Shown here one piece after another: positions 1 through 63,864 of a DNA stretch of 64,000 nucleotides. Numbering within the stretch: position 1 is the first letter of the stretch; each line of letters starts with the position of its first letter. Both the position numbers and the translations under genes were made by a program. The notes under the pieces were generated by a model that saw only the letters and a program-made list of their open reading frames with translations, made no database searches and was not told where the DNA came from. The DNA comes from Lingula anatina (Eukaryota > Animalia > Brachiopoda): the NCBI GenBank assembly GCA_051362555.1, contig CM120641.1:19716001-19780000 (forward strand), read 5' to 3'.

Positions 1-86
1 TTGGTCATGGTATACTAGAAATAATTAATTCGTTGACATTCAGGTGCACAATTGACAAAGTGTGGTACTGTTTTAAGTTATTACAG

Positions 87-135
87 ATAAGAAGCACTCA
101 GAATGCCTGGAACTCCTGCAAGACCTGCAAAACAG
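87..135 (+). other. Upstream exon with ATG at 103 (MPGTPARPAKQ): alternative start or uORF exon of the LBR locus
   Basis: Acceptor ttacag ends at 86 and donor CAG|gtattc starts at 136. ATG103-135 is 11 codons ending in phase 0. Confidence 0.5.
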
Positions 136-352
136 GTATTCACACCGTGTATATTATGTAGGGCTTTGTTAACTTCTGCTTATCTTTTTCATGGAAAAGG
201 TGTAATAACACAATTTAACTTGATTTGCATGCTTCATAAATTCTTGCTTATTTTATTTCACTTGTAGGCCTAATTTTTTGGGATACTAAATCTAGTGGTG
301 TTAGCTACCTGCAATACAAGAACACACTTAAATTGGGGAAAAAACACAAAAC

Positions 353-3300
353 ATGCCCAGTCCACAAAAGAGTAGGTCACATGATGTGGGAGATGAAGTT
401 TATGCAAAATGGCCAGGCAGTAATCTTTGGTTTCGGGCCAAGGTTCTGAACAATAAAGATGGGCGCTACACTGTAAGATATATGGAAGGAACTGAAGAAA
501 CTATCAGCCAAAAACACATCAGTGTAAGTAATTAAAGTGTGAGTTTGCAGAGTAGCTTCCACTCCTTACTGTTTGTTTTAGTTTTAATTTGAAGTCTTGT
601 GTTGTCCCTAAAACATTACATTGAAGAGTGGTTGATCCTTCTCAGTGTCACATATTGTCAATACATAAAGTGTCATTTATATTATTTCATTCATGGTTTA
701 ATAAATCTGGGTGTTCAAACTTCCTTGAATTTGTATTACTAGCTACCTGTAGGCAATATGTGACACTTGTATAGGCCTTTTCTGTATGCCAAAATAAAAT
801 GTACAGAAAATGCCAGACTTGTCTGCAATGTAAACCTGCCTTTCAATCTTTCTACTAACAGTTTGCACTATTTACTCCCACTGTCAGGTGTTTTTAAGGT
901 AATTTTCCTTCAAATTGACACTTTGCGTGACATTGGCAATCTTTCCTTACTTTGTGTGTGTGTGTGTGCGTTCAATAGCAGGAGAACCAGAAGAAGTCTA
1001 ATTGATAGCTTTATCTCTTTAAAGAGAAATTACAAATTTGTGTGATAGTTTTAGTTGTATGGATTCTTTCAAATACTTTTTTTCACTAAGCATTTAATCA
1101 TTATAAGGCTAAAAACTGTAAGATTTATAAAGTAGGAAACTTGGGAGAAAAGTGAAGTCTACCCTACCAAAGGTTAAACAGCTATCCTCTAATTTATAAA
1201 AGAATAGATGTGAACTGAAGGTTACTGGCTGAACTACTACTACAGTTTTTGCCCCCCAGCATGTAATATCTCTGACATGGTTTCCTTTGTGTGAAATCAA
1301 TGCCTTTAGTAAAATTATCAACTAAGAACTTTGAGTAAAAAAAAGCAACCTGATATATGCAAAAACTGACCATGTTTTTTTCTCTGTCTCTCTCTAAATT
1401 TAGGCCATGTCAAACTTCACCAGAAGTTCTAGGTCACGGTCCAGATCTAGAAGTCGAGGCAGATCTCCGGGGCGCAAGTCCAAGGCAAGTCCTTCTCGCA
1501 AAGCCAAGCAAAGTCCATCCCCAGCCAGGAAACCTCGCAGTTCTTCAAAATCTCGCAGTTCTTCCAAGACTCGTGCTGCAGCCACACCTTCTACTCCTAC
1601 AAGGCAATCTGCAAGGCTTGCAGAAAAGCAGGTATTAAATTCTGTGGTTGATGCTATTGATAGATTATTTATGCTAGAATTTTGTATTTTTAATTGATGT
1701 TCACAAGTAACTGAACTCATGCTAGCTGATTTGTTTGCTTTATGCCAACGTTTACAGTTATTTAGTCAAACTGATGACAAGCTGTTGAAAAAAAGGGTCA
1801 TTATCAATGTTTAAAAAAAATGGTTAAATGCTACCATGAGTCCAGAAGGTAAATAATCAGTGTATATTACTGTGTGTTTGTGTTATGAAAATGGTCTAAT
1901 GCCATGTTTTGCTGTGGAACTGTCGGAGGAGGATGCATTTTGTTTCCGTTAAATGGCAAGGTCGGTTTTTTATGCTGCGTCTGAGTGTATAGGACTTGCT
2001 GCTGCACTGCTGAGTTATTTAAACTCACTGCCTGAACGCTTGACAAGGTAGATTTTTCCAATTTTTTTTTTCTTCCTAATTTTTCATACTGTAGATTAAC
2101 TAACACAGTTTTAAAGTTTGATATTAACCATTCATTTCTTTTGGATAAGAATTCATTATTTAAAGGCTTGTCAAGAGTATATGCTAATGCCTTTTTAACT
2201 TTTTTATAGTATGAACCTGAAAAGAAAGTTGAGGTTGCACGAAGATCTAGCCCTCCCAGGTCAAAATCAAGAGGAGAAGATGACCAGTCTCTCGCAGGTC
2301 CAGTTTTTTCACTGCTTGGAATACTGCTTTCACCAGTTATGCTTTACACTCTCAATCTCCTGTGTGCCAAGGTAAGATAAATATGATCTATTTTCGTTTA
2401 ACACACTAGATTTTTAAAAGTGCTCTTGATGTTGTGTAGTTTTTAATTTTATGTGCTCACTTATTCTACAACAGACCAGTATTAATCTTTGCTTCACCCC
2501 ATCTATAAGGATTCTTGCAAGTTGAGGATGCCAACGTTCCCCAAGAAGTTGTCGGACTATTTTGACTCCAAGGCAACTATGATTGTGCTGGCATGGTTCT
2601 TGTTCCAAGTTGTCTTGGCGGCCCTCCCAGTTGGCAGGGTCATATCCGGACTCCCAGTTAGAGGATCGCAAAAACTCAAGTACAGATGCAATGGTGGGTT
2701 TTCATACGATTGCTGATTTGTTTTAAGATGGCTGTTTAATGTTTTTTCGTGATTATCATGTTGTTTTAAAGATCCCCAATAATTTAAAATGTGAAGAAAA
2801 ACTCTGAAAAATTCACGATTTTGACCAGTATATAGGTCATACAAGTTACTGTTAATTAATTATTCATTTTATTAATTTTTATCAAATTTATATGAAGGGG
2901 CATGAAGAAAATGCATTGACTTCTGGGCATCCATATTTGTGTTTTGGGCCAGTAAGTAATGCAAAGTAAAAATATTAAATAAAACCTTTCACTAACAGGA
3001 AGTTGCATTTCCAGGTTCCATAGCGCTGGTATTGAGTCTTGTAGCCATGGCTGTTGGCCATGCTTACTTCAAGGTGAACTTGGCTGTTGTTCACACTCTG
3101 TGGCTCCAGTTGATTTCTGCTGCCACAGTGTTGTCCCTTGTTCTCAGTGTGGCCCTGTACATCCAGGCCAGGAAGGCAAAACCAAGTGCTGTGGCGCCTG
3201 AAGCCACTGGTTAGTATGTCATGGCAGTTGGATTAATTATATTTAATCATTCTTAACAAGGTTTGGGTTCTGACAATTTGGGAACTGTTTGTTACCAAGA

Positions 3301-5918
3301 CCTATCTATGATTTAAGTCTAATTTTATGTTAATATTGGATAAAAGTTGTGAAGTTTTTTGAAAGCAGGGTACTACTTGTACGTCATTGTTTGATAAAAC
3401 AATGGTGTAATGCAAGACAGTAATAATTGACATACAGGACACCTGAACAATTGACTTGGCACATGAATATTTTTCATCAAAGCAAGATTTCTGTTTATTA
3501 TTGAATACATTTTTTTAATTTATTTCAGGTAATATTTTGGTTGACTTCTGGGTGGGGCGCGAGTTGAACCCTCGTATAAGGACATTTGACTGGAAACTCT
3601 TTATGATACGTTTTGCATACCTCAGCTTGTTGGCTGTTGATGTGATCTTTTTGGTTGAGGCATACACTGGCAAATCAGGGATGTCAAACTACCCATTCCT
3701 TCTGGTAGCTGGTGTGCAGGTTTTGCACTGTGCTGTCCAAGTACTGAATGAGGTATATCAACTGAGTAATTGAAATTGTCATTCCAATGAGTTGTAGATT
3801 ATTTTAAAACTAGAAAAGCACTCTGAGAGCGCAGACCTCCACCAAGGCAGCAATTTTTTATTATTATTGATCCGGATCACCACCAAAAACGAATCACTTC
3901 TAAGTTACCCATTTACCACTACCCTGAAAATTTCATCAAAATCGGTTCATAACTTTTTGAGCTATGTTGATGACAAACAAACAGACAGGGGTGAAAACAT
4001 AACCTCCTTGGCGGTGGTAATTAGGGTTTTACAATATCAGTACTAAGTATCTCACATGTTACTGACCATGTTTAAAATATACCAGGTGCACACCTCATTG
4101 TGTTGGTACAGGTTCAGGGTATTCCATAAATCAGACATTAAACCTTTTAAGATAATCTTGTAAGGCATTGGCATTCAGATATAAAATTATATAACAAAAT
4201 GCCCAGCTTTTGCTTTTAGTCAGTATTGTTAGATGTAAATAAAAAAGTAAAATAACTTTTCCGAGGACTGCCAAAGAGCATATCAACCTCATTTCAAGGT
4301 CAGTAATTGCATAACAGTGAAATAAGTGAACAAAAATTAAAATCTCTTGTTTTTAGGATATGTTTCTGACTATGCCTGACATAACCAAGATGGGGCTTGG
4401 ATTCATGTTCATCTATGGATTCATGTTGGCAGGACCATTTGGTTCTTCCATCCAGGCACGATATCTATTAGAGCACCCTCAAACTCCACCATTGTGGGCA
4501 CTTGCTAGTGTGGCTCTGCTAAACTGTAAGTAGCATTTACTTATGTATTATTATTTATTATTGTTATTTATTTATTTTATTTTAATCATTATTTTTTAAC
4601 ATAAAGCCATGACCTTTGTATTGTTGCCTTTTTTACTGTTAATGCAATAAATGGTAAACCTTATTTTCAAAATAACTGGTGGTCAGGAGTATTTAAAAGC
4701 TGTAAAATACAAGTCCAGTCTGATTAGCAGTGTTCTTGGAACTTTTTTTAATCACACATTGGCAGTTTAAGGTGTGACTTTGAACTCCCATGGGCCTGAA
4801 GCCCTGTGCCAGTTACATTTTTCTGAATGTCCACATTAACAGTATCACATAATTAGTAAATGCGGATGGTAATGTTGTTAAGCAAATTTATTTTTTTTAA
4901 AGTCGGATTTGCTTTTTTATGATTTATATATGTACACCTTTTTTATCAGTTCATTACATTTTGGTATTGGTTTCTTTTTTCCAGTGTTTGGTTTCATCCT
5001 TTATCAGTCAACAGTTTCACAGAATGCCAGATTCACAAGGAACCCCTATGACCCAACATTATCACGTAAGTATGCCCTGAACAAAGCATAAGTTTTCTAA
5101 CTTGTGTTAGGAGTCAATCACTTTAGTGTTTTTAGCTAATTTTCTCATTCTCATACCAATGCAAAATACTTTGAATTCTTTTGTGCGTTTCCATTGCCTA
5201 GATATTGCTTTTCCTCTGAATATGGGCTATTCACTGATTTTAGCAAAGGTTACACAGCAAAGCTCACTTTTTCTTTATTAATTGTAAGGGAAAAACATTT
5301 TAGAAGAATAGCTGCACTGTCTTTAACTCCATTTTCTTTCTTATGCCATTTTTTTAACAACTCATTTCCAGACTTGGAGAGCATGCCGACCAGTGTCCCA
5401 GGGGAGCGGCTGCTTGTGTCAGGAATGTGGGGAATGTGCCGCCATCCTCTATACTTTGCAGAACTTGTTTTGATATATGCATGGTCACTGGCTTGTGGTA
5501 AGTTGCATAAAAATTAAACAGTCCATTATCCAGTTAAGGTATTTTGAAGATATTTTTGCCTGGTTTACCAATATGCAGTTAAAATGGATATAAATCATTG
5601 ATGAGCTAATGTCTTTGTTAGTGGTGCTCTCTAATCAAACCTCCACTTCCATTTCTAACTGTTAAGTATAGTCCAGTATTGAAAGATGTTGCACTCATTA
5701 TAGCACCTTATATTCCCAGCAATACTCATAAAAAAAATTGAATTAAATTCCATTCAGGTTTCTCCACTCCACTGGTCTACGTCTTCCCAGTTTTGATGAC
5801 ACTGCTGTGTATGGACAGTGTGTGCAAGGAAGAGGCCGAGGCCAGTAAGAAATATGGCTCTACATGGGACCGCTGTTGCCAGCGTGTGAAGTACAAGTTA
5901 ATTCCATTTGTTTATTAA
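353..5918 (+). CDS. LBR: Lamin B receptor-like protein, module A: Tudor + RS region + degenerate ERG4/ERG24 sterol-reductase TM domain (~566 aa)
   Basis: Exons 353-523, 1404-1631, 2210-2371, 2510-2693, 3015-3209, 3529-3752, 4357-4525, 4985-5065, 5372-5497, 5758-5918. All introns are GT-AG and the frame is continuous (1701 nt). LBR Tudor motif GDEVYAKWPGSNLWFRAKV, RSRSRSRSRGRSP region, [21 protein letters not shown] and C-terminal KKYGSTWDRCCQRVKYKLIPFVY. Confidence 0.92.
3808..4020 (+). mobile_element. Short non-autonomous Helentron-associated (HINE/DINE-like) element in an intron
   Basis: Starts actagaaaagcactctgagagcgcagacctccaccaagg. Has a (GACA/AACA) microsatellite at ~3972-3987 and a 3' hairpin aacctccttggcggtggtaa complementary to the 5' subterminal acctccaccaagg. 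Confidence 0.7.
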
Positions 5919-6929
5919 CTGCTTCAAACAGACAGCAGAGAAGATTGGATCTGAATATGTACAATGTTATTCCAACCTTGTTAGATTGTAAATTATTTTC
6001 GAGACATTTGTTGCTTGAATTTATATGTTGTATGAAATTATGACAAAGAAACTGCCCTCGCCACAATGAATGACTATTTCTTTAAGACTTACATAATTTT
6101 AAATGTTGATTACCGAGAAAGTTTGTTCATCATTTCTTGAATGTCTTTTTTGTGCAAAAGACAATGATGAACTGTGAAAAGAATTTACTTGGGATTCAAC
6201 AGTTTTAATATATTTCAGAAATAATAGACAACATTTCATAGCTAGAAAGTCAGTATTACTTTTTAACATATTTATTATTTATCTTTTAATGATAGAATTT
6301 AATATTTTATAAAGAGCTTTTTTGTTTGTTTGGCATATAATAAATGCAATTCTAACATGAAATTTGGAAACGACTTACTATTTACTATCAGCATTCTTTA
6401 TTAATGTAAAACTTGTGTTAGATATGTGAATATTGATGTACATTTTAGGAGTTTGTTGTGTAGAACACCATGTAATGTAAGTTGATATCAGCCTGTTATA
6501 TTTTCAATTTTACACAGATGGAAACTTTAAAATTGTTACTGTAAAAAAACAGAAGGAAAGGTGGTTGAAATCATACAATTGTTATGACCATATGGATTTT
6601 TTAACTGCACACTACTTCTAGTGCACAAATGTGTATTTGCTTGTTTGAAGTGCCCAGTAAATCAACATATTGCTTTATTACCGACTTGCTTTTTACACAG
6701 TTTACAGAGAAATTGTATTTCTTGGTGAACTCAGGGGTTTTATAAAATCAATTAAGAAATGTAAATAAGTGTGTTCTTTTGCCAGAAATAGCTGTACAGT
6801 TTGTATTTTTGCGTAAATAAAATTTTTCACTTTTTCCATGTTGTATTTTGTGTCACATAACCTAACACTGAAGACGGCAATTTTCTAGAAATGAAATATA
6901 TGGTTAAAGATGACCAAAAGCCGTTTTAG

Positions 6930-7790
6930 TTAATGAATTTTATTTGCCTTGTCGCCCCGCCCCCCTTTATGCGTACAAGGAGGTTGAGCTCCCCGGATGG
7001 GGATTCGTGTAGTTCGATAATAATTGGTATTTGTCTCTAACGCACAGTAAACTTTAAATAAAACGTGAACTGGCTGTTACTGTGTGTGAAAGACCATTAT
7101 CAACGAGCCTTGAGAGTTCAACCCCCCCTGAACTGGAACCTAATGGAATGTTGAAATTTCCTGGTGTACGTTTTGCTTTAAAAAATAGGCAGTTTAGGGT
7201 GTTTTTCACTAATATTCAGTATGTGACTGTGAAAGTGCGCTTTCGTGGTAGTGAGACAGGTGGTATATAACGTGTCGATTTGGACAGAAACGAAGTTTCT
7301 AAAATGGCCAGTCAAAAGTAATAAGACCTCTGACGCAATTCAAAAGCACGCAAGTTGCAGAAATGAGTTTGTTAGAAGTTTGCCACAGTTTCAGATCTTG
7401 TTTCCAATTACCATCATTAAGACTCGACAATTATCTTTATTTGCACTTTTTATCATTTCTGACAGCATAGGCCCGTTTCAATTTTCAAAAATTAGCATGT
7501 TCAACGATTACGCGTATAAGCTGTGCATGTGATGAAAACGAGGTTTACGTTTGGAGTATTAACCCAAATGAAACCAGATGTAAACCGAAGAACAAGTGGT
7601 AGTCAGTAACGTTTGTTCACAGAAAATTATAACGATGCATCTACGTGTGTATGCATTTGACAGACGTCTAGACGATACGTCGTACGATTGTTACCAGGTA
7701 AACATGCGGCAGGTCAAAGTTCATCCAACCTCGAACGATATCTTGGCTCGGTCATTGTATGATCATACCATCACATAGTGTCTATCTTAC
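6930..7790 (+). promoter_or_regulatory. Candidate promoter / 5' region of module B (CpG-retaining segment)
   Basis: CpG density rises visibly relative to the flanking gene bodies. GC box gccccgccccc at ~6954. Possible first coding exon 7635-7697 (MHLRVY...CYQ|gtaaac, phase 0). Confidence 0.4.
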
Positions 7791-7792
7791 AG

Positions 7793-10700
7793 ACAAACGG
7801 ACCTGAAGAAGTGGAGAAGAAACCTGAAATGGAAAGAAAACCCAGCCCCGCCAGACCCGCTGTTGCTACACCAGTTGCCGACAAGCCAGTCGCCGACAAA
7901 CCTGTTGCGGACTCGGAGTTTGGTGGACCTGTTGGAGCTTTCTTCTGTATTGTGCTTCTACCGGCAACTGTTTATGTCATCAATATTATGTGCACAGAGG
8001 TAATGTGAGCTGTTAACGTGTAATAATTTCATATATGTAATTGTTACTAGTGATAACAGAAAGCAGACGAAGTTCAGTGTCACAAATAATGATAAATAAG
8101 TAAAGATATATATGGACGTACACGGTAAGTGACTCCCCTTTTTTAACATATTAAAAAGTTCTCTGGCGTTATGTTGATAGATATTGGAATACAACGCTGT
8201 GGACTGTTAAGTTAGTCATCTTGATAATTATATATAAAATGTATATTAATTTGTTTCTGCATGCATGCAGTGGGAGGGGTCTTGCATTGTATGTCTCAAC
8301 ATTTACAGAAGATTTTACAAAACGAAAATATCAACCAGTTTTGCTTTTTGAAAAACTAAGAAAAACAATCTTTATTTCTGTAGAAATCCTGTACATTGGC
8401 AATACCATCAATCCCAAAGAAGTTGAGCAGTTACTTTGACTCCAAAGCAGTTATGATTGGACTTGGCTGGTTTGTGTTCCAAGTGGTTCTGGCTGTTCTT
8501 CCTGTTGGCAAAGTTGTATCTGGTCAACCTGTCAAAGGCCTACAGAGGCTTCAGTATAGATGCAATGGTAAGCTTTCTTTACAAGTTTATTTCTTCTTCA
8601 GTGTATAAAGGAAGCTAGCAACCATTTTATTAATTGTCATTCAAGTCTTCAAATATATTTGTTGCCTTGTCAAGGTTTGTAATATTTTAATAAAGTGCTT
8701 ATTTGACTTGCCCACTTACAATTATTAAGTCAGTATATAAGTCAAACAAGTATTTTTTTTTTCAAGTTTTGGATTTCAATCACTGCAAAGCAAAATCAAT
8801 TCATTTCACTTGCTGTTCACAAACCTTTCAATTGGGTGATTGCCATTGTTGTTTATAACCAACATTTTGACAAACAATCATGATACAAGTTTGAACTGCA
8901 AAGTACATTTAACCAACATTTTTACAATATTTATTTTTTTCCCCTAGGTTTCATAGCACTGATGGTCAGTTTGGTTGCCCTGGGAGTTGGTCAGGCTTAC
9001 TTCAAGGTGGACCTGTCCACTGTCCACACTCTGTGGCTTCAGCTTATCACCACTGCCATTGTATTCAGTGTAGTTCTAAGCTTGGTCTTATACATCAGGG
9101 CTAGGAGTGCCAAACCCAATGCCCTGGCATTCGCAGCAAGTGGTAGGTTTTAAAAATTTATAATTACAATATCAGATTTAATATTGTACTCCATTACAAT
9201 GGTGGATCAAGCAGGAAGGGGGTGGTGAACACAACATCCATGTGCCCCTTCTCTCCCCCCCCCCTCCCTTGAGGTATCCCCCTCTCCACCCCACAAAGAC
9301 AACACAACAAACGGAATTATTAAAAATGAAGCAGTTTTTCCATCCCTGTGCCCTGCATAGATTAGTGAAATATTTTTATAGATGCCTATTGGCCCTGCTT
9401 TCTATAGCAAAATTCTATCCTTGTACCCCCCCCCCCCTTCTCTAGCAAAGTCCTGGATCCACCAGTGCATTATTATTTACAGATGTCTTTTTAAAACTTC
9501 CAATTAAATACTGACCAAAATATTTTAAAGTTCAAATGAATATCGAGTCAAAATATTAAGATAAAATAATGCAAAGATAGGGATAACAAGCACAATGTAA
9601 GGATGCCATTTTATACTGCATACATGCCATTGTATTCAGACGAAGAAAGAACGATAGGTAGCGTGAATTAAAAACAAGGCAGCAAAGCTGTCAAATGTAC
9701 AGACAAAAAACAGAAAAAAAAGATGCAAAAGAGGTCATTTTGTCAATTTTGATGCAACAATAAATAATGCTTATAATAGCAGTCAGTCAACACTGATTTT
9801 TCATTATGCACAACAGGTAACATGGTCAATAACAGGAGCACATCCAGAAATATTTTTGACAGTATTCTAAAGTATCTTTATTGATCCATCTTCCATTTTG
9901 ATGGTCTTCCAAAAGAAAAAAATAGATACACATCAATATAAAAAATCTAACTGTCTTCCAGGAGACCCAGAAGATGGTCTCAATCCACCCCTTCAATAAG
10001 ATTATAGTTTCATGACCATGAGAGTTAAAATTCACATGATGAAAGTCCCAATATAAGAAAAATGATGACAGTGCATAAAATAATATTACTAGTGTTTAAA
10101 GACATGAATACCAATACAACTGCTTACGTGGAAATACAGAAATTGTGCAGAGCCTCAGGTGGATGGGAAAGTCACATCTTAAAAATGCCAGTGTTGGAGA
10201 AGAAATTAAAAAGAAAACAACAAAAATATAATCTAATGAAGCTGCTATTCAGTGCTTCCTTATTATGGACACTGTTATCTAGCAGAGAGCTTAACCTTTG
10301 GGAGTTTACAGGGAAATATCAACAAGTGTGATTTATGAAATCTCATTTAATGGCCACTTAATCAGGCAAATGAGTTTATAGCACTAAACTTAGCCTAGTG
10401 AATACCCAAGGGGGATTTACAGACTGACCACACAAATTTGTCCCATAAGACACAGCTTAAGAAAAGCACAAAACAATAATGCACAAAAATAGGAGACTGC
10501 CAATTCTGATGCAATAGTACATTATGTTTAACTGCACAGTCAATATCAAATCTTAATTATGCAGAACAGGTAACAACGACGAAAGTAAAAGCATAAGGCT
10601 TCAGGTCCATCAAAGTTCAAATTTACATTTAGAAAGAGCCAGAATGAGAAAAATGAAAATTTCACACAAAATTGCATAAATTCAATAATAAATGATAACC

Positions 10701-13700
10701 CAATTGAGCTGGCTTTCTAATTTGAACTGCATGCCAATCCTAAAAATCATACTCTTAAGTTAAACATAATAATAAGTAACACAGTTTTCTTTCCATAATG
10801 TTTGCAGAAGCAGTACAAAAATATTTTTGTCAATTTTGATGTAACATTACAAAATAATTTATAGAATAATGATCACCAATTTTTTATTATTGACTATGAA
10901 TAGCAAGGACATGTAGAAAATTTGATTACCATTCGGCTTCATGTCCATGGGAGTTCTGAGTCCCACAATGAATATGCCAAAAAGATAATAATGAATATTT
11001 CACTAAAATGTATAAATTCCAGAAAAAGAAGCCAATTAGACTGCTTTTCCAACTTTTTTTGAAAGATTGAGTCGTAAGTAACATGATTTTCCCATAATGG
11101 TCATCATGGCAGCAACACCAAAAATTATGTTTTCTTCTATTTTGATGCAACATTACATAATGTTTAACAGCATAATGACCATCAATTTTTAATAATAAAA
11201 TATTAGTATCATGGATATTCAGAAAATGCGACTAGCAAAGGTCTTCAAGCCCGTGGAGGTTCTAAGTCACACCTTGAAAATGCCAATAAATGAATAATTA
11301 AATTTTCACAAAAAACTGTTTAATTGCCAGAAAAATTTACCAAACAGACTGCATTGCCTACTGAAGCTATATTTTAGTCCCATGTTTCTTTCCTGTAAGT
11401 TTGAGAACAGTGAGTGATATGATTTTCCTTAAATGATCATCATGGGAACAGTGCCCAAAATAGGGGTTTCTTCAAATTTTGATGCAATATTACATAATGT
11501 TTAACAGCATAATGACCATCAATTTTTAATAATAAAATATTAGTATCATGGATATTCAGAAAATGTGACCAGCAAAGGTCTTCCGGACCATGGAACTTCA
11601 AAGTCACATCTTGAAAATGCCAAAATGTAAACAAGACAGCACTTTTCTGAAATGGGTTTATTTCCATTTTTAACACTTTTTTTAACATAAAACAAAATTA
11701 ACAATTAACTGCCATTTTTATATGACCAACTAATAAAATTGATGAGATGGGGAAAATATCAATAGAACAGTGTTAAATGTCCAATTTCCTCCATCTAAGA
11801 TTCTGAACATAGTGGATGATTGAATATGACAAATTGCAATGATATGTGTTTATTTCCAGTTTTGACACTTCATTACACAATACATGATAACAAATTTACC
11901 ATCATTTTTACATAATCAACTGACAATGTTGTAAAGATGCAGGAAATGTCAAACAAACACTTTTATGTATCTTATTAGTTCAATAATGAGACTATTAACA
12001 TGCCTAAGAATTGAATCTGAGGAAATGTGAAAAAAAAGCATAACTTCTAAAATAATGGACCGATTATGCTGATTTTCATACTCAACCTATGTTTTAGTAA
12101 GATTGACCACTCTTGTGAGTAAAATGACAATTTGCCTATCTGTTTTTCTTATATTGTATTATCAGTGTTGTATATATGCTAAAAAAATGAAAAAACAGCA
12201 TAACTTCCATAAAAGTGGCTCTATCATGCTGTTTTTCAAACTTGACCTGCGTATTATGAATATTCATCAGTTCTGTAAGTTTCAAGCCAAAAGGTAAAAT
12301 GGTATTTCACATATCGTATTATCGGTGCTGCATATATGCTGAGAAAAGTGAAATAAAGATGCAAATAAGTGAAAAATTAAATTTTCACAAAAAACTGTTA
12401 AATTGCCAGAAAATTTTACCAAACAGACTGCGTTGCCTATTGAAGCTGTATGTTAGACCCATGTTTCTTTCCTGTAAGTTTGAGAACAGTAAGTGTCATG
12501 ATTTCCCTTAAATGGTCATCATAGGAGCAGTGCACAAAATAGGGGTTTCTTCAAATTTTGATGCAACATTACATAATGTTTAACAGCATAATGACAATCA
12601 AATGTTATTAATAAAATATTAGTAACATAGACATTCAGAAAATGTGACAAGCAAAAGTCTTCAGTATCATGGAACTTTAAAGTCACACCTTGAAAATGCC
12701 AATATGTGAAAAATTAAATTTTCACAAAAAACTGTTTAACTGCCAAAAAAAAAAAAAAAAAAAAAAAAATACCAAACAGACTGCATTGCCTACTGAAGCT
12801 GTATTTTAGTCCCATGTTTCTTTCCTGTAAGTTTGAGAACAGTAAGTGACATGATTTTCCTTAAATGGTCATCATGGAAGCAGTGCCCAAAATAGGGGTT
12901 TCTTCAAATTTTGATGCAATATTACATAATGTTTAACAGCTTAATGACCATCAATTTTTAATTATAAAATATTTGTATCACAGATATTCAGAAAATGTGA
13001 CTAGCAAAGGTCTTCAGGCCCATGGAACTTCAAAGTCACACCTTGAAAATGCCAAAATGCAAACAAGACAGCACTGTTCTGAAATGGGTTTATTTCCATT
13101 TTTAACACTTTTTTAACATAAAACAAAATAAACATTTTACTGCCATTTTTATATGACCAATTAAGAAAATTGATGAGATGGGAAAAGCATCAATAGAACA
13201 GTGTTAAATGTCCAATTTCCTCCATTCTGAGATTCTGAACATAGTGGATGATTGAATCTGACAAACTGCAATGATATGAGTTTATTTCCATTTTTGACAC
13301 TTTATTACACAATACATGATAACAAGTTTACCATGTTTTTTACATAATCAACTAACAATGTTGTAAAGATACAGGAAATATCAAACAAACACTTTTAGGC
13401 ATCTTATTAGTTAAATAATGAGACTGTTAACATGCCTTATAATTGAATCTGAGGAAATGTGAAAAAACAGTATAACTTCTAAAATAATGGCCCGATTATG
13501 CTGATTTTTGAACTCAACCTGCGTCTTAGTAAGATTGACCACTCCTGTGAGTATAATTACAATTGGCCAATCCGTTTTTCTTATATTGTGTTATCAGTGT
13601 TGCATTTATATTGAAAATAGTGAAAAAACAGCATAAATTCCCTAAAAGTGACCCAATCATGCTGATTTTCGAACTTGACTTGCGTATTATGAATATTCAT

Positions 13701-16700
13701 CAGTTCTGTAAGTTTCAAGTCAAAAGGTAAAATGGTTTTCCACTTATCGTGTTATCGGTGCTGCATATATGCTGAAAAAAGTGAAAAAACACTAAAATTC
13801 CCTAAAAGTGACCCGATCATGCTGATTTTCGAACTTGACCTGCGTATTATGAATATTCATCAGTTCTGTAAGTTTCAAGTCAAAAGGTAAAATGGTTTTC
13901 CACTTATCGTGTTATCGGTGCTGCATATATGCTGAAAAAAGTGAAAAAACAGCATAAATTCCCTAAAAGTGACCTGATCATGCTGATTTTCAAACTTGAT
14001 CTGCGTATTATGCATATTCATCAGTTCTGTAAGTTTCAAGTCAAAAGGTAAAATGGTTTTCCACTTATCGTGTTATCGGTGCTGCATATATGCTGAAAAA
14101 AGTGAAAAAACAGCATAAATTCCCTAAAAGTGACCCGATCATGCTGATTTTCGAACTTGACCTGCGTATTATGAATATTCATCAGTTCTGCAAGTTTCAA
14201 GTCAAAAGGTAAAATGGTTTTCCACTTATCGTGTTATCGGTAAAAGTGCACGGCGACGACGGCGACGACAGCGACGGCGACGACAGACGCAGATGGTGGC
14301 TATATGTACAGACACATCTGTGTCTGTACATAAAAAACACATGACACATACGTGTATAGAAAATGTGCAGGGGGATATACACACACTGGACAAAAGAAGT
14401 GTCACCCCTACTGAGCCAAAACTATGGGGGAGATAAATGACTGTGGAATGATATGCTCCTGGTATCATTTTATTAACATCAAATTTCACAAAAAATCACA
14501 AAATGAGAAGAAAATATACATTCTACCAAAATATGCAATTTCAAGTCCAAAATTAGTACTTAGTGGCATAGCCACGTGACCTAATAATAGGTGCCAGTCT
14601 ACGAAGCAAGGATTTGTATAATTGTCTGATGCGTTCAGGGCTTATGCTGGCCCAAGCATGAAACACTGAATATAACAGAGTTTCTCTGCTTGTTAGACGG
14701 GCATTTGTCCAAAGTTTTGACATGTCATTCCACACATTCTCTATTATGTTTGCATCTGAACTCTGGGCAAGCCACATCACCCTGCGAATGTCCTGTTGGT
14801 CAAACCAATCATCAACTGCTCTGGTCCTGTGACAAGGAACATTGTCATCCTGGTGAAAAAATGGATAATTCCTGTCACCGAGCATGTTAGTAATAGATGG
14901 TACCAGGCCTGACTCCAAAACATCGATATATTTCTAGTGATTCATGTTTTCATCAACCACTATCAATTCGCCCACGCCATGGATGCTGATGCAGCCCCAC
15001 ACCATGATGAATATGCTGCTCCGGGTTCGAAATTTAAGTACATGTGGTTTAAATGCTTTACCAGCAGTTCGCCAGCATTGTACCCGTCTGTCATCAGAGG
15101 TCAGACCAAAGCGACACTCATCAGAAAAAAAATATATAGGACCAATTGTCATGGACTGTCCAGTTCCAGATCCTGTTGGCCCTAGTTCACTCCACGTTGC
15201 CTGTTTTGTAACGATATAAGAGGTTTCAGTCTTGCTACCCTGCTGTACACTCTATGAGCATGTAACCGACGCCTAGCAATTTTCACAGACACATTCTTAT
15301 GTGTGAAATTGTTCCACTGTGTTGTCAACTGACAAGCAGTGTCGAACTTTGACAACCTGGACATCAAAATCAGTCATCGGTCTTCACGGCCAGTAGTTTT
15401 TCTTGGACGACCCATCAGAGACAATTTGTCTCTTGATCCAGTGTTTCTATACCGAGACCAGACCCTCTGCACGGTTCTGACTAAACAATTCAATTGTATC
15501 GATATACTGATATTGCTTATATTCCGCCTCCTCAGGTTAATAACTTGCACCTATAACCGTTAGATAATAACCTGTATTTTGCCATATTGGAGGAAGACAG
15601 GAATAACATTTGCTGTACATGTCCAAGACCAACAATACAATTCCATGGTATAGCAGTTTTATACTCATTAGTCACATTATAAGTAAACCAGGCATTATAA
15701 GTACCCAAGATCTGCCTACTTTTTTTGGTCTGAGTTAGGGGGTGACACTTCTTTTGTCCAGTGTGTGTACATGCACTGCATCAAAATCCTTTCATTTCAG
15801 GCAATGCCATATGTGATTTCTGGATGGGGCGGGAGTTGAACCCACGCATAGGGAGCTTTGACTGGAAATTCTTCTGTGAGCTGCGCCCTGGGCTGATTGG
15901 CTGGGTGGCCATAAACATGTGTTTCCTGGCAGAAGCTTATGGTAGTAAATCTGGATGGCCAAACTACCCACTTATCATGGTGTGTGGCTTCCAGCTTCTG
16001 TATGTTGCTGATGCACTCTGGAGTGAGGTAAGGTTGCACACAACTTTTTTTTTTTTTTTTTTTTTTTTTACATCTACATTTATTTTTTAACAGTCTGCAT
16101 AATTTGCACTCTGGAAAGTTGCATTTGAATTATGTCTTTTTTTAGACAGGAAACAGAACAGAGAATTGGCTCTGCTCACATTTATAGGCAACCAAATATC
16201 AAAATAACAATTGGATCTCTATCAACTTATCATCTGATGAATTAAGAATGATTGCTATTCCAAAGTTGTCTTGTCCGAATATACCTTGTGTTAACTTCAG
16301 TTTATTCCAATCCAGAATTGTCCTGTCTGAACACACCTCTAGTGTTATATATGTTAACTGTAATTTCAGGAAGCTATTCTCACCACCATGGACATTATCC
16401 ATGAAGGCTTTGGGTTCATGCTTTGCTTTGGTGACTTGGCATGGGTGCCCTTCCTGTACAGTCTTCAGCCACGATTCCTACTGGAGCACCCACAGTCACT
16501 GCCATGGTGGGCTTTGTCTGCTGTAGCACTGCTCAACAGTAGGTCATCTGTGTTGTTACACAGTGGTTTATGTGATTGTAATACACTAGTCATCATGAAG
16601 AAATTTTCTGTGACATATTTGATGAATCTTGGTGGCTATTCACTACCACAGCATCCATCCAATTGCATTTAGTATGTTGCCACTTTTAAGCAATTTTCAT

Positions 16701-18097
16701 GTGATGTTGGAATAATTTATATTGTCGCTGTAAACACTCAAAAATGAAAGCGTATCGTTGAAAATCATGTGGGCAAAATTTGGGCACAAAATACTCCATG
16801 AAAACACTTTGATTGTTAATTCAGTATTGTTTGCTTAAACCTAAATATCAGCTTCATCTTGATATGTGCACGTTCAAAGTAAAATGTTTCAACTGAATAT
16901 CAGTTTTTTTTTTCAATATTAAGTAGAGCGAAATTCTCAACAGTTAAAGTTTTATACCATTTCAAACATGGATTTAGAAACTGTGATAAGTTGAGCAATC
17001 TTTTCAGTGATTGGTTTCTTAATCTTCCGTGGATCCAACTCTCAGAAGAACATGTTCAGGAAAAATCCTTATGATCCTGCATTAGCTCGTAAGTAAAATC
17101 TATGTTCTGGAAATGTGTTATGAACAATGTCTAATAATTGAGTTGCAGTAATCACTAAAATCATAATGGAAAATGATATGATTTTGAAATTGGATTGGTA
17201 AGCATTTTGAAGCGCACAACACAGGCTGAAAGCAAGTTTTGTTTTTGCATGCACTCTTTATAAATTTGATGAAATACTTTTATCTTGCGAAAATAAAAGA
17301 GATGTTTTAGAATGCACAGAATATATCAGAAGACAATGAAAAGCAAAGGATTCTTTTCAGTCTGAGGAAAAGTGCAATGTTTATAAACAGCATGAAATAC
17401 TGACAAAAGAGTTTTGTTTTATTCCACATAGATCTGGAGAGTATGCCGACCAATGTGCCAGGCAAGAGACTGTTGGTGTCAGGATGGTGGGGGCTGTGTC
17501 GACATCCTAACTACCTTGGGGACCTGATTATGGGTCTGGCCTGGTCTCTGCCTTGTGGTAAGTTAAAAATAGCATTTCTAAGCCCTCCGTTGCATTGTGT
17601 TAAGGGATTATACCTCATAAACAGTTTCAAGTATTAATTTCAACTTATAATTTTAAAAAGTTTACTTTTAATTTCTTGTAATATTTTTAACACATTCCTG
17701 ACATGTTTACTTAAAGAGTTTGTGACAGAAATTGATTTGTAATTTATATATCTTATACATTAACTGAATTAAATATAATATTATTTTTTTATTGTTTTAA
17801 TAAGCTTTTTGTCAGACTTTTTGTTTCAACAACAGCCAAGTTTTTAATGCATTAGCATAAGATTAATAAGATAATACGCAATATCAAAAGGTCGGAATGT
17901 AAGTTTGTCATATACATTTACGTTTCTTAATTTCAGGATTTTCCTCTCTGTTACCATACTTCTATCCCATTTATTTCTTCATCTTGCTGGTGCACAGAGC
18001 GATGCGTGATGATGCCATGTGCAGGAAAAAATATGGCGCTCACTGGGACCATTACTGTGAACGCGTCAAATATGTTATCATACCATATGTTTACTAA
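7793..18097 (+). CDS. Delta(14)-sterol reductase (LBR/TM7SF2 family), module B with intact catalytic motifs; start exon uncertain
   Basis: Exons 7793-7999, 8384-8567, 8948-9142, 15801-16027, 16370-16538, 17008-17088, 17432-17557, 17937-18097 (1350 nt, in frame). Motifs [81 protein letters not shown] and [10 protein letters not shown]. Confidence 0.93.
9197..9467. mobile_element. MITE with CA(G/A)TGGyGGAT-type TIRs and a 5-bp TSD (hAT5-like)
   Basis: Ends caatggtggatc ... gatccaccagtg, flanked by catta on both sides. Confidence 0.7.
9671..14336 (+). mobile_element. Large non-autonomous Helentron-type element carrying internal satellite arrays (intron of module B)
   Basis: 5' subterminal atgtacagaca (~9695) matches the arm of the 3' palindrome tatgtacagacacatctgtgtctgtacata (14303-14332). 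(CGA/CGG)n microsatellite at 14250-14285, internal tandem blocks, no credible ORF. An inverted copy lies at 18651-20890. Confidence 0.75.
13460..14240 (+). repeat. ~161-bp tandem satellite (about 5 units) inside the Helentron-type element
   Basis: tgaaaaaacagcataaattccctaaaagtgacc recurs at 13621, 13782, 13942 and 14103. Variant units occur at ~13460 and ~12030-12350. Confidence 0.9.
14380..15767 (-). mobile_element. Tc1-family (DD34E) transposon, full-length ends, transposase disrupted
   Basis: TIRs cacacactggacaaaagaagtgtcacccc at both ends, with TA TSDs at 14378-79 and 15768-69. Minus-strand fragments [25 protein letters not shown] and HQDDNVPCH...[11 protein letters not shown] (34 residues between D and E) are broken by stops and frameshifts. 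Confidence 0.93.
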
Positions 18098-18650: not shown

Positions 18651-19918
18651 GTTTTTATGTACAGACACAGATGTGTCTGTACATATTGCCATCACCTGCG
18701 TCTGTCGTCGCCGTCGCCGTCGCCGATCATGTCGCCGTCGCCGTGCACTTTCAGCGTTAACACCATAAGTGGAAGACAGTTTTACTTTTTGGTTTTATAT
18801 TAACAGAGCTGACTAATATTCATAAAACGCAGGTCAAGTTCGAAAATCAGCATGATCGGGCCATTATTGAAGAATTTATGCTGTTTTTTCACTTTTTAGC
18901 ATATATGCAACACTGTTAACACATTTCAAGGAAAACCGATAGGCCTGTTGTCATGAAACTCACAGGAATAATCAATCTTACTAAAACACAGATCAAGTTC
19001 GAAAATCGGCATGATCGGGCCACTATTTTAGTAGTTATGCTGTTTTTTCACTTTTCAGCATATATGCAACACTGTTAACACATTTCAAGGAAAACCGATA
19101 GACCTGTTGTCATGAAACTCACAGGAGTAATCAGTCTTACTAAAATGCAGGTCAAGTTCGAAAATCAGCATAATCGGGCCATTATTTTATAAGTTATGCT
19201 GTTTTTTCACATTTCCTCAGATTCAATTCTTAGGCATGTTAACAGTCTCATTATTTAACTAATAAGATTCGTAAAAGTGTTTGTTTGACATTTCCTGCAT
19301 CTTTACAACATTGTTAGTTGATTATGTAAAAATGATGGTAAACTTGTCATCATGTATTGTAAAATAGAGTTTCAAAAATGGAAAAAAAACTCATATCATT
19401 GCAGTTTGTCAGATTCATTCATTCACTATGTTCAGAAACTCAGAATGGAGGAAATTGGACATTAAACACTGTTCTATTGATATTTTTCCCATCTCATCAA
19501 TTTTCTAAGTTGATCATATAAAAATGGCAGTAAATTGTTAATTTTGTTATATGTTAAAAAATTGTTAAAAATGAAAAAAAAACATTTCAGGACAGTGCTG
19601 TCTTGTCTACATTTTGGCATTTTGAAGGTATGACTTTGAAGTTCCTTGGGTCTGAAGACCTTTGCTAGGCACATTTTCTGAATATCCATGATACTAATAT
19701 TTTATTATTAAAAATTGATGGTTATTATCCTGTTAAACATTATGTAATATTGCATCAAAATTTGAAGAAACCCCTATTTTTGGCACTGCTCCCATGATGA
19801 CCATTTAAGGAAAACCTGTCATTACTGTTCTCAAACTTACAGGATAGAAACATGGGACATGAATAAAGCTTCAGTGGCCAATGCAGTCTGTTTGGTAAAT
19901 TTTTCTGGCAGTTAAACT

Positions 19919-19973
<55 letters not shown>

Positions 19974-20890
19974 TGAAAATTTAATTTTTATCTATTGGCA
20001 TTTTCAAGGTGTGACTTAAGAACCTCCACAAGCTTGAAGACCCATGCTAATCATATTTTCTGAAAATCCATGATACAGATCTTTAATATTAAAAACTGAG
20101 GGTCATTCTGCTGTTAAGCATTATGTAATATTGCATTAAAATAGGAGAAAACACAATTTGGGGTGCTGCTGCCATGATGACCATTATGGGAAAACCATGT
20201 TACTTATGATTGTCAAACTTTCAAAAAAGAAACTAAAGACTAAATTCAGCCTGAGTTGGAAAAGCAGTCTAATTGGCTTCTTTTTCTGGAAGTTATACAT
20301 TTTAGTAAAATATTCACTTTTATCATGTTGGCATATTTATTGTGGGACTCGAAGCTCCCATGGCCATAAAGCCAAATGGTAATCAAATTTTCTACATGCC
20401 CATGCTATTTATAGTCAATAATCAAAAATTGGTGATAATTATTCTGTAATTTATTATGTAATGTTACATCAAAATTGACAAAAATCTTTTTGCACTGCTA
20501 CTGCAAACATTATGAAAAGAGACTGTATTACTTATTATTATTTTCAACTTACAAGTATGATTTGTAGGATTGGCATGCAGTTCAAATAAGAAAGCCAGCT
20601 CAAATGGGTTATCATTTATTATTGAATTTAAGCAGTTTTATGTGAAATTTTCATTTTTCTCATTCTGGCATTTTCAAAGTGTGAACTTAAACTTCCATGG
20701 GCCTGAAGCCTTACGCTTGTTACACATTTCACTTACATTGGTATTACCTGTTGAGCATAATTAAAATTTGATGTTGAATTTGCAGTTAAGCATAATGTAC
20801 TTTTGCATCAGAATTGACAGTAGCCTATTTTGTGCATTGTTATTGTCTGCTTTTTGTCTGTACATTTGACAGCTTTGCTGCCTTGTTTTT
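18651..20890 (-). mobile_element. Second, shorter copy of the Helentron-type satellite-carrying element, inverted
   Basis: Reverse complement of 9671-14336: palindrome at 18656-18685, (GTC/GCC)n tract, satellite units at 18780-19210, and end ttttgtctgtacatttgacagctttgctgccttgttttt. Confidence 0.85.
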
Positions 20891-32805: not shown

Positions 32806-33620
32806 ACAGGGTTACCACTTAATATGGAATATTATTTTTTGGCGAGTAAATTTTCTACGAAATATTTAATTTCTCTCTAACTACTTTAAATCCAACCTGA
32901 GGTGTCACTCCATGTGTAGCCAGGTGTGTTACCTTAATACCACACAACTCTCGAAACAATTGATGCATGCAGTTGCATGTTCTGTGGTCAGAAATGTGAG
33001 GGGTGGTCTTTTCGGCAATTTCTGCCCTTGTATAAAAACACATGGGTTTGGTCAATCTTTGGAGTGTGTTTAGAGAAGCAACAAAGGGGTCGCTCTGAAA
33101 CTTGACAGGTACTTTATTGAAGATATGGTTCGACAGCTAAGCAACGCAGCTTACTATGGGACTCTTGCTCTCAGAGAAAATGTCAAGAAACGGACAGCCA
33201 TTGCCAGGTAATTCAACATTTATCAGGAACCGTTTGTAAAGTCCTCCAAAGAAATGATGCAACAGGGGCACCTACTCCAATACCTCGACCAGGGTGTCCG
33301 CGTATCACACCAAGAAGACAGGATCGCCTTCTCCTTAGAGGACGCCGTGCTGGCCGTACAAAGACAACCAGTGTCCTCAGAAAAGAGAGGCAGAATGTCA
33401 TTCAAACGCCCGTTTCAAGGTCACGAGATTGAACAAGAGATTACTGCAAGCCGGTTATTTTGCACGAAGGCCAGTAGGGAAACCACTGTTAACAGCAGGT
33501 CATATACAGCGACGTCTGCAATGGGCTGGGGACCACGTGCGTTTGCAGCCAAAACACTGGAATCACGTCGTTTTCAGTGATGAGGCCAGATATGGATTTT
33601 TTAGGGTTGATGGTCGATAC
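32806..33620 (+). mobile_element. 3'-truncated Tc1-like transposon relic
   Basis: Frameshifted transposase N-terminal half: PRPGCPRITPRRQDR, RLLQAGYFARRPVGKPLLT and WNHVVFSDEARY. The left boundary is approximate. Confidence 0.8.
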
Positions 33621-34615
33621 ACAAGTATTCATCCATAAGCACATAATTGTAAACATACTATCATTAATCAACATACACGCATGCAAGTACACTGTAGACC
33701 TACACACACTAACACACACATACTTGCACCGTAACAAAAATTGAAAAAAAAAAAAAGAAAATAATCACTGTAGCAAAAACAAATGTACAAATAACATTTT
33801 AAAAATCATATATACTAAACAAATTTAAAAGTCAATAGCCAAAAAACCAAAAAGGAAAGACAAAAAAAATAATAAAAAAAAATTTACGTGTCGACTGGAC
33901 TGCGCTAACTGGTCGAACGAACAACTGTCGTAACTTACCCACAATTCTTACAAAGAGCACAACTAGCACAATACACAAAATGTCGCCCCTAAGGAGAAAA
34001 TAATTTCATTCTAATTCACTTCACTAAAACGAATAAAATTTCATTCTCGCGAATCACAAAATTTCTAACGAAAAGAGGGAGGACAAAGTCTGATAGCTAA
34101 AATAAGAAATATTAAGCATTTACTTCTCCATACGACACCAAACACGAAACTGTATGAAGACAATGACACTCTTCATTCTGGTAATTGGCTACAGATATAA
34201 TTATACATGTATATAAAGGGCTTAGATATACTTTTTAAATATATATCCTTGGGACTCATTGGTTCAAAGCAGATTGAGTTGTTTAACCCTACAAAGAATG
34301 AATGGTAACTTCTATTGATTTTAAGGTCAAGCGTCAAGTACACAAACTAGATTTATTGCCAGAGGTAACAGAGATTGTAAACGTTGATCATAATAAAGTA
34401 ATATGTTAACTATTTATGGTGGATAATTGGGTAGACACAACATAATGAAGAAAAAAAGATCCCAAAGTGCAATTTTTCACAACAATATTTAAACGAAACA
34501 GGTGAATAGCCTTCTTTATTTTGCTTGAAGTACAATTCAGGATACTTTTTAAAGTGCGCATTTCTTATTTTTTTCTCAGTGAGGACGGAGGTAGCTCGCC
34601 GCAGCTACATGTCCG

Positions 34616-48809: not shown

Positions 48810-50193
48810 TCAGAAGACCATATTTTAAAACAAAATCATATGCCAAACTGGGATGATCCCAAAATCTTACCTTAGAGTCAAACTTTCAAAACATTATATC
48901 ATGGATCCTAGGTTTGACAAAATACTTTATTGCCTTTTTGGTTGAAATAAGAGCGTATTTTCATATAAGAATGGTCAGAGTCTTTCATTCCCCTAAGTAA
49001 TGTAAATATATAATGTAGGCCTATGTATAAGGTAACAACAAGTTATATTCTTGGTAATGGTAGGCCTACATGTAATTTCCTTTGATATGAAGAGCTATCA
49101 CTACATTTTGATTTAGCTGGCTTATCTAATTTTTATTTGGTGAACACGAAGTGACCCTGCAAGCCGGAACGATGAAATGTTCTAGCCTAGTATCCAAGAT
49201 AGAACTTAGATCCTAGTTCTAGCTAAATGCCATACACACGACAGCGAGACAGATATCGGCTTCCAGACTTCCGACTTCCTACTTCAAAGAATTTTAATAT
49301 TCACCCTCACGCAAGTCACTAAAACGAAACATTTCCACTCAACGATCTTTACGATTCTCCAGAAGATAACAGCATTCTAGGCATTGAGTTGAGGTTTGTG
49401 TTGGAGAGTAATAACATTCTGATAGTTGTGACAAAATAACCGCTACTGCAATAATAATAATAGTAGTGAATCTCAATAACATACAAGGGCCCAGTTAAAA
49501 GCAAGTAATGATCACAAGATCCTTAATGTTTGCCTTGTTGGGTCAGATAAGGGATAGATTCCAAGCAGATTCACAATCTAGTCCCTTTCATCTAATGCAC
49601 TTAATCTGTATCGATGGAGCACAGCTGTCTGTCACGCCCACAGGCACGTTTTTATTAAGTTTCTCTGTTTGTTTCAAAGCTGCTATGTGATGTTGCAAGC
49701 AGACCCACATCAATACCGAGGAATAAAAAGGAGATAGAACTAATCTTTTTGTAGTTTCTGTCCGTTTTAACTTTCGTCGTGGCTCTGGCGGTGGGCAATG
49801 GTTTTCTTTTTATCACATAAGCCTAGGGATTGGATAAACACAATAGCATATTCTAAGCGTAGTATTTGGGCAAGATCGACAAAGTTTCAAAGCAAGGTAC
49901 GGGATAGATGCCAGGCTGAGGTTTTCTATAAGGATTAAAAACCATGGAGAAGTCTTCTCTCTGAAATACAGCATAAATTCAAGCACAGGACATAAAAAAG
50001 GAAAGCCACTACTGGGTGATTCAGGGACATTTTAACAGAAATTACTTAAACAATTTCTTAAGTTTGCGTATTCATCCTCATTGACTGTACATTGTACAGT
50101 ATACTTTGTATAAACATTGTTCCAAAGAGAAATGCCCTCACTGAAGTTTCTATCATGTTAGTAAATATCGATGGGAAAACCTAGTTAATACAG

Positions 50194-50769
50194 ATGGCAA
50201 CCGAAACAAAGAACGTTTCCAGTAACTCTTTGAATAAACTACCAGATGATGAAAATGAAGAAGACGAAAACGAGAGAAAGTTTCTTGCAAGACGGAAAAA
50301 TATGCAACAATTTTACGAAACGCAAAAGGTCCGCGAAGAAATGATCGCCGAAAGTCGGATCAGACGCAGGCGAATAAAAGAGGAATTAGCAAAGCAAGAC
50401 AGATACAGAAAACTTGGTAGAACAGTCATCATTCCTGCTTGTTGTTTTATTGTTGCAGGCACAGTGGCAACCTGGAAGGGCTATGATTACTATTCTGTTT
50501 CGCCTGGCCAGAATAAAGATGCTCGAACTGCTCTTAAGATTCTTGGACCCCCTGCGTTGCTTTTTGGTGTCGTTCTCCTCGTTACAGCATACGCATTATG
50601 CAAATTTTCCCAGACAGGAAGTCATAGACAGGCCTACAATGATACCCTTGAACATTCATTCAATTTTTCTTATCCAGTCCATATGAAGGCCAACACTAAC
50701 GTTGGATCTAAGCAAAGACTTCTTATGCCAGCTATTAGCCCAGCAAGTTTAAGATCGGACCCGATCTAA
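50194..50769 (+). CDS. Uncharacterised 191-aa two-TM protein (PIRT/TMEM100-like architecture)
   Basis: Single ORF with a charged N-terminus, TM1 TVIIPACCFIVAGTVATW and TM2 ILGPPALLFGVVLLVTAYAL. It aligns by eye with 54243-54689. Confidence 0.75.
   Translation: MATETKNVSSNSLNKLPDDENEEDENERKFLARRKNMQQFYETQKVREEMIAESRIRRRRIKEELAKQDRYRKLGRTVIIPACCFIVAGTVATWKGYDYYSVSPGQNKDARTALKILGPPALLFGVVLLVTAYALCKFSQTGSHRQAYNDTLEHSFNFSYPVHMKANTNVGSKQRLLMPAISPASLRSDPI

Positions 50770-57208: not shown

Positions 57209-63864
<6,656 letters not shown>

Follow-up and report, generated by a model that had tools for sequence, protein, structure and literature searches.

A single LBR gene of Lingula anatina probably joins a common head to either of two reductase cassettes, one likely active and one likely enzyme-dead

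INTRODUCTION

The reason for the fusion of chromatin tether and sterol enzyme in LBR has been posed as an open question (PMC5617974), and the retention of a dead reductase domain by insects lacks explanation. Both matters arise in a stretch of 64,000 nucleotides from the brachiopod Lingula anatina (GenBank assembly GCA_051362555.1, contig CM120641.1, positions 19,716,001 to 19,780,000 of the forward strand), here called the window, in whose coordinates all positions are given. An LBR head made of Tudor and RS exons is followed there by two tandem copies of an eight-exon reductase cassette, called tail A and tail B below. The original prediction, made from the letters of the window, held that LBR had been split into two genes, with chromatin tethering set apart from sterol synthesis. 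Is this locus two genes or one, and what is a degenerate reductase doing beside an intact one? We consider it probable that there is a single LBR gene, in which a common head is spliced to either of two mutually exclusive, tandem-duplicated 3' cassettes, with B giving a likely active C14-reductase form and A a likely enzyme-dead anchor form.

RESULTS

The two cassettes contain eight exons each, all of their introns in the window are GT-AG, and the intron phases are equal between the two series (Table 1). Exon sizes, given as A/B, are 162/207, 184/184, 195/195, 224/227, 169/169, 81/81, 126/126, and 161/161. The open frames encode 433 amino acids in tail A and 449 in tail B, and the tails are identical at 233 of 434 aligned positions, with the stop counted. 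The description of two tandem eight-exon modules in the original prediction was verified for AG/GT sites, phases, and sizes, as was its statement that module A keeps an open frame and every splice site, and all six of the motif replacements that it quoted are correct when A is aligned to B. Two features were absent from it: a short first coding exon (ATG at 103, ending at 135) and a CpG island (6851-8200).

The RS exon ends in a phase 0 donor (1631), and the first exons of A (2210) and B (7793) both start in phase 0. Raw RNA reads from four runs (X1, X2, X4, and X7, of which X1 and X2 belong to one study) were mapped to positions 1-4500. The joint from 1631 to 2210 was found in 52 reads of X1, 71 of X2, 2 of X7, and none of X4. 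In addition, 53 reads of X2 left the RS exon with a loose end whose 30-letter consensus matches the start of B at 7793 exactly. Head-A and head-B joints thus occur in X2 at roughly similar levels (71 versus 53 reads). In X1, read depth was 120-245 over the RS exon and fell to 57-67 over the A exon that follows, as would be seen if about half of the molecules continued elsewhere.

RefSeq models, which are independent of this read mapping, also join the head to both tails. One scaffold carries a Tudor-RS-B protein (582 amino acids, XP_013389222.1), a short-exon-RS-B protein (536 amino acids, isoform X2), and an RS-B protein (524 amino acids), so that all three RefSeq tail B proteins include the RS region; A appears on that scaffold as a head-less gene of 356 amino acids. 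The other scaffold carries a Tudor-RS-A protein (566 amino acids, XP_013404620.1). The A proteins of the two scaffolds differ at 2 of 356 residues and are probably alleles. The window differs from RefSeq at 8 of 566 residues of the head-A product and 5 of 582 of the head-B product and therefore comes from another haplotype or individual; heterozygosity in Lingula was given as 1.6% in the genome paper (PMC4595640). On one scaffold the annotation assigns the locus to two genes, a reductase gene and an "LBR-like" gene without a head, and thereby hides the gene structure.

Neither a head-exon remnant nor a separate copy of the Tudor and RS exons was found upstream of B in the window sequence. The observation that B has no such exons of its own therefore stands as far as a separate copy is concerned. 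What does not stand is the conclusion drawn from it, since the phase 0 first exon of B takes reads from the RS donor. Because B is joined to the head in both the reads and RefSeq (isoforms X1 to X3), the proposed division between tether and enzyme does not hold: the head is common, and B is made with the RS region according to the reads and with the Tudor domain according to a RefSeq model. Two separate genes with a head-less B are ruled out on the same evidence. An assembly artefact or haplotype copy was also considered and is ruled out by the synonymous divergence between the tails (dS 1.65), their unalignable introns, and the presence of A and B together on one RefSeq scaffold. Allele-specific use of A is unlikely, since both alleles are present in RNA reads of the A exons at roughly half each.

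The head itself is variable. Reads joining the short first coding exon to the RS exon numbered 115 in X1, 222 in X2, 3 in X7, and 0 in X4, against 29 in X1 and 42 in X2 for the Tudor exon. The short exon is thus about 4 to 5 times commoner, the Tudor exon takes part in about a fifth of the head joints, and the majority of transcripts do not encode a Tudor domain. A loose read end before 75 places an upstream untranslated exon beyond the window edge. Pfam LBR_tudor was detected in both the 566-residue head-A and the 582-residue head-B RefSeq proteins. The nemertean Lineus has annotated LBR isoforms both with and without the Tudor domain, and a Pfam scan of the Mytilus, Haliotis, and Tubulanus proteins found none. 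From these sequences, an optional Tudor domain may be old in lophotrochozoan LBR. This second choice, between the Tudor exon and one of 11 residues, would be independent of the first and could bring the number of products to four.

The reductase domains of the two tails were compared with those of other species. Among 105 reductases of at least 380 amino acids (from 119 non-Lingula matches), 134 columns are conserved at 95% or more. Tail B keeps 126 of these and tail A keeps 72. Eight core positions were defined by MaSR1 numbering, assigned by hand from alignments: Tyr241, Asp363, and Arg395 as catalytic, and Asn316, Lys319, Arg323, Asn359, and Asp399 as the NADPH site. Tyr241 and Asp363 are predicted catalytic residues (PMC12489058). 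Tail B keeps all eight and tail A none, having His at 241, Glu at 363, Ser at 395, Val at 316, Asn at 319, Thr at 323, Leu at 359, and Glu at 399, of which D363E and D399E are conservative changes. Glu201 is deleted in tail A. The human LBR substitutions N547D and R583Q, which correspond to MaSR1 359 and 395, reduce NADPH binding and fail in rescue (PMC4951196); the original prediction had rightly aligned these positions with L and S in module A. Among 163 diverse relatives, the 148 with all eight columns filled score from 3 to 8. Tail B is, by its sequence, likely an intact and active sterol C14-reductase cassette, and tail A is likely a pseudoenzyme, as had been proposed.

At tail B residue 200 (15,810-15,812), the window encodes Cys in place of the Tyr found in RefSeq B and in all 105 reference reductases; this is a rare allele or a sequencing error. 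Seven LBR-like proteins (P0202, P0227, P0236, P0249, P0272, P0276, and P0288) keep three of the eight core positions, five of them in one shared pattern, and the LBR Tudor domain was found in two of the three that were scanned. Judged by these positions, the seven are further degenerate LBR lineages.

The losses in tail A are not spread evenly. They fall mainly in the catalytic half: tail A keeps 24 of 31 conserved columns in the N-terminal part, before tail B residue 221, and 48 of 103 in the catalytic part after it (Fisher P = 0.004), and it keeps 20 of the 26 conserved Gly or Pro columns. Pfam ERG4_ERG24 scores 453 bits in tail B and 265 bits in tail A. The AlphaFold model of the 356-residue RefSeq form of tail A has a predicted local distance difference test score of 96, and its best Foldseek match is MaSR1 (4QUV), with an E value of 1e-18 and a TM score of 0.84-0.86. 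The model shows that tail A is compatible with the multi-helix reductase fold, and no more.

Tail A is expressed, and purifying selection acts on it. Both X1 and X2 contain every one of the five joints that lead into A and run through it up to 4357, with 17 to 144 reads each; the last three joints rest on the match to RefSeq XP_013404620.1 and not on window-mapped reads. In all four runs, a short interspersed repeat in a tail A intron (3806-4021) collects reads that derive from many other loci and lie on both strands. Between A and B, nonsynonymous divergence (dN) is 0.35, which with the dS given above makes a ratio of 0.21, and the introns are unalignable apart from repeats. Variants within the A coding exons comprise 9 replacement and 10 silent changes; in the absence of selection, 75% would be expected to be replacements (P = 0.009). 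The fate foreseen as fatal to a functional module A, an unexpressed cassette with a ratio near 1, is not what was found.

The tails are also each other's closest relatives, at 52% identity compared with at most 42% for other matches. In the tree, A and B are sisters (Shimodaira-Hasegawa-like approximate likelihood ratio test [SH-aLRT], 100), on branches of 0.9 for A and 0.12 for B, away from vertebrate LBR and TM7SF2. The tandem duplication is thus lineage specific and independent of the vertebrate LBR/TM7SF2 pair, as originally suggested, and the two modules are not ancient unrelated paralogues; a DHCR7- or ERG4-like origin of A is ruled out. Relative-rate counts gave 93-102 A-unique against 20-24 B-unique changes with seven of seven outgroups, so that protein change is about five times faster in A than in B. 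Rough lineage dN/dS values, obtained by apportioning dN between the tails in the unique-change ratio and halving dS, are about 0.35 for A and 0.07 for B.

This rapid change is what would be expected if tail A were a decaying, functionless, transcribed pseudo-cassette that the spliceosome merely meets first. Such decay would also fit the number of RefSeq differences (8 in the 433 residues of A versus 3 in the 449 of B) and the lack of an A orthologue among the protein matches. The frame and all splice sites of A have nonetheless stayed intact over a dS of about 1.6 while the introns became unalignable, and none of 1,000 neutral simulations at each of the distances 0.3, 0.5, and 0.7 remained free of stops. 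With the silent excess in present-day variants and the nonrandom placement of the losses along the protein, these results leave decay barely credible.

A different account of the same selection is that tail A has acquired a new membrane job, such as lipid binding or sensing, scaffolding of sterol enzymes, or modulation of B in mixed RS oligomers. The retention and selection of the entire 433-residue tail and its lineage dN/dS would agree with this, as would polar-to-hydrophobic changes clustered in the pocket (D271F, N316V, N359L, and D244V in MaSR1 numbering) that go beyond those of any of the 148 relatives; vertebrate LBR RS domains are described as oligomerizing (PMC5617974). However, tail A has also lost the residues on the sterol side (E201, W209, D271, and W274), and the selection is explicable by folding constraint alone, given that truncated LBR is degraded (PMC4951196). 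We regard a new job as unlikely next to the reading of tail A as an enzyme-dead anchor.

Tail B differs from tail A in one further respect, the island that lies upstream of and over its first exon. The ratio of observed to expected CpG is 1.0 in 6851-8200. It is 0.29 over 1-6850, and two further stretches measured in B gave 0.06-0.34; CpG-rich patches are found in repeats of the window too. Given gene-body methylation in invertebrates, an island of this kind could be read as an unmethylated promoter. A predicted head-less reductase of 437 amino acids would begin with the in-frame ATG at 7829 (tail residue 13). Tail A has no comparable island and no ATG ahead of its first membrane helix. Two Mytilus species have annotated head-less isoforms of 423 amino acids with a similar start. 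A motif resembling an SREBP site gave 30 matches against 32 expected and none within the island.

These features raise the alternative that an internal promoter drives most B expression and yields a TM7SF2-like enzyme of the endoplasmic reticulum without a head, the headed product being mostly A. The island, the ATG, the lack of a counterpart of either at tail A, and the Mytilus isoforms all speak for it. Against this stand the near parity of head-to-B and head-to-A reads in X2 and the RS region in every RefSeq B protein, with no head-less tail B protein of Lingula in RefSeq. A bifunctional head-B form would remain even alongside a head-less one. We consider this alternative very improbable; a head-less B transcript made from the island in addition to headed B is possible.

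Several points weigh against one gene with an enzyme-active and an enzyme-dead tail. The head-to-B evidence is a loose end and not a joint mapped on both sides; it was seen in one of the four runs (X2) and was absent among six loose ends of X1, a set with 179 further entries. X4 and X7 scarcely cover the gene, and no read links the Tudor exon to a particular tail. The dS between the tails is close to saturation (proportion of synonymous differences, 0.67), and the variant test used the 19 variants found among 40 of 190 in total, with runs mixed. The tree was a quick IQ-TREE analysis of 46 rows without bootstrap, and the fold model of tail A was determined largely by an alignment of 96 sequences, most of them from intact enzymes. 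Among the protein matches, in which few brachiopods are likely represented, there was no tail A orthologue from another brachiopod or any other species. As most transcripts do not encode the Tudor domain, it is mainly the RS region that supports the role of "chromatin tether." Lastly, one membrane helix is enough for targeting in vertebrates (PMC5617974), yet some 430 residues of A are under selection, so pure anchoring may not explain a tail of that length.

Table 1. Features of the Lingula LBR gene in the window
Feature	Position	Strand	Basis or detail
Short first coding exon (alternative), 11 residues from the ATG at 103, without Tudor domain, major head form	78..135	+	RNA joints, translation; 5' edge approximate (75-78)
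Tudor-domain coding exon, minor head form	353..523 (coding; exon probably from near 268)	+	Pfam LBR_tudor, E value 2e-08
Shared RS-rich exon, last constant exon	1404..1631	+	Phase 0 donor joined to either tail
Tail A, degenerate reductase cassette	2210..5918	+	2210-2371, 2510-2693, 3015-3209, 3529-3752, 4357-4525, 4985-5065, 5372-5497, 5758-5918
Probable 3' untranslated region of tail A	5919..6850	+	AATAAA at 6339 and 6816, candidate proximal polyadenylation signals; cleavage site inferred
CpG-rich island, candidate internal promoter	6851..8200	+	Spans upstream of and over tail B first exon
Tail B, intact reductase cassette	7793..18097	+	7793-7999, 8384-8567, 8948-9142, 15801-16027, 16370-16538, 17008-17088, 17432-17557, 17937-18097

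The long intron of tail B contains a composite repeat of several kilobases (about 10,600-14,300), an inverted copy of which follows the last exon of B (about 18,700-20,700). Its arms, of 140-350 nucleotides and 73-91% complementary, flank the last five B exons and could permit their inversion. The same intron holds the broken remnant of a Tc1/mariner-like transposase on the minus strand (14553-15251; DDE_3 E value of 5e-06, under the Pfam cutoff), and a similar remnant was seen by eye near 32,900-33,640. Beyond the LBR gene, about 25,500-45,800 is occupied by three tandem genes whose products are membrane proteins, each having an N-terminal IgGFc-binding domain and a stalk rich in Thr/Ser that differs in length among them. 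They are 79-94% alike in DNA, and their region is not CpG depleted (0.86). Two related open reading frames that look like single exons (50185-50769 and 54234-54689; 194 and 151 amino acids) each encode a charged N-terminal portion and a pair of hydrophobic segments, and neither had a Pfam match. Exons of a gene for Prp3, a protein of the U4/U6 small nuclear ribonucleoprotein, lie at about 59,400-63,300 (Prp3_C E value, 4e-26).

DISCUSSION

The observations suggest the following course of events. The pre-mRNA would be spliced into A and then cleaved and polyadenylated after A, at one of the two AATAAA signals; alternatively, the block from 1632 to 7792 (6.2 kb) would be skipped and the B acceptor used, with the choice made by competition. 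A motif scan found no AATAAA within 900 bases 3' of tail B. Two crude tests for docking/selector pairing gave a best duplex of -25.3 kcal/mol, which was matched by 3 of 20 shuffles, and no significant complementary match. After the duplication, B would have kept catalysis while the active site of A decayed and its fold, Gly/Pro turns, and N-terminal helices were retained.

In vertebrate LBR, the basic RS region and the first membrane helix target the protein to the inner nuclear membrane (PMC5617974). Both headed Lingula products have these two parts, and by this analogy both would tether there. The B form would likely be bifunctional, combining tether and sterol reduction, and the A form would likely not be reductive, so that A would raise or maintain LBR tethering without added reductase activity. 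The functional split at this locus is thus likely between an enzyme-dead and a bifunctional LBR, rather than between a tether and a head-less enzyme.

A further step, which we put forward tentatively and hold to be on the unlikely side, is that the choice of tail is a regulated enzyme/pseudoenzyme switch, set by tissue or sterol state and combined with the Tudor choice and perhaps a head-less form, and that the dead tail has been retooled for a role of its own. If so, the two functions of LBR would have been uncoupled in a natural experiment, in an animal where an intact enzyme persists, and the LBR membrane domain would have a conserved job beyond catalysis.

One gene that puts both forms on an identical head opens the noncatalytic role of the membrane domain to direct comparison, and the 62 conserved positions altered in A separate the demands of catalysis from those of the fold. 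The locus clearly exemplifies the exchange of an entire enzyme domain for a pseudoenzyme through alternative 3' cassettes. It is known so far from a single species, and its architecture is of a known type.

We found no literature on this LBR locus; the search covered mostly literature available without subscription, and a survey of the animal cholesterol pathway may list Lingula copies. The layout of the gene is of a kind described before, and the LBR instance with enzyme and pseudoenzyme tails is new as far as this search shows.

Like vertebrate LBR, TM7SF2/DHCR14, and MaSR1 (PDB 4QUV), the Lingula gene belongs to the system in which a Tudor and RS head is found with an ERG4/ERG24 domain, and B keeps the catalytic and NADPH positions; the MaSR1 fold is retained in tail A by prediction. 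Vertebrates have two genes, both active. Lingula, unlike them, has one gene with two tails, one of them degenerate, which arose by a separate duplication, and an optional Tudor domain. Drosophila LBR (CG17952) did not rescue yeast erg24, according to a secondary account (PMC2478713), and so has a membrane domain that is present yet inactive, a state predicted from sequence for tail A. Unlike Drosophila, a sterol auxotroph with no active form, Lingula has an intact tail in the same gene. The core score of tail A, zero of eight, compares with a lowest score of three among the 148 relatives, a set for which the inclusion of insect LBRs is not established.

The closest parallels in layout are the Drosophila genes CG42235, pip, and PGRP-LC, in which the same 5' exons can be spliced to any one of a set of duplicated 3' cassettes, each made up of several exons. 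The cassettes number five to seven in CG42235, with six to eight exons apiece, and ten in pip, with 2-4 exons apiece (PMC6191721; PMC9013439). The joints of X2 at 1631 show the defining feature of such 3' tandem cassettes, one constant exon spliced to either of two homologous cassettes. The Lingula gene differs in protein family and phylum, in having two cassettes only, and in placing a likely pseudoenzyme beside an intact enzyme. Cassette choice in the fly genes works through competing RNA pairings and polyadenylation (PMC6191721), whereas the pairing expected of such docking/selector control was not found by the two crude tests in Lingula. Among human tandem-duplicated-exon events, 77 of 236 are C-terminal substitutions, and conservation between the alternatives is significantly higher at ligand-binding residues (PMC9741552). 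Lingula LBR resembles these human swaps in drawing homologous alternative C termini from one gene. Unlike them, it exchanges its complete enzyme domain, and change has been greatest at the active site.

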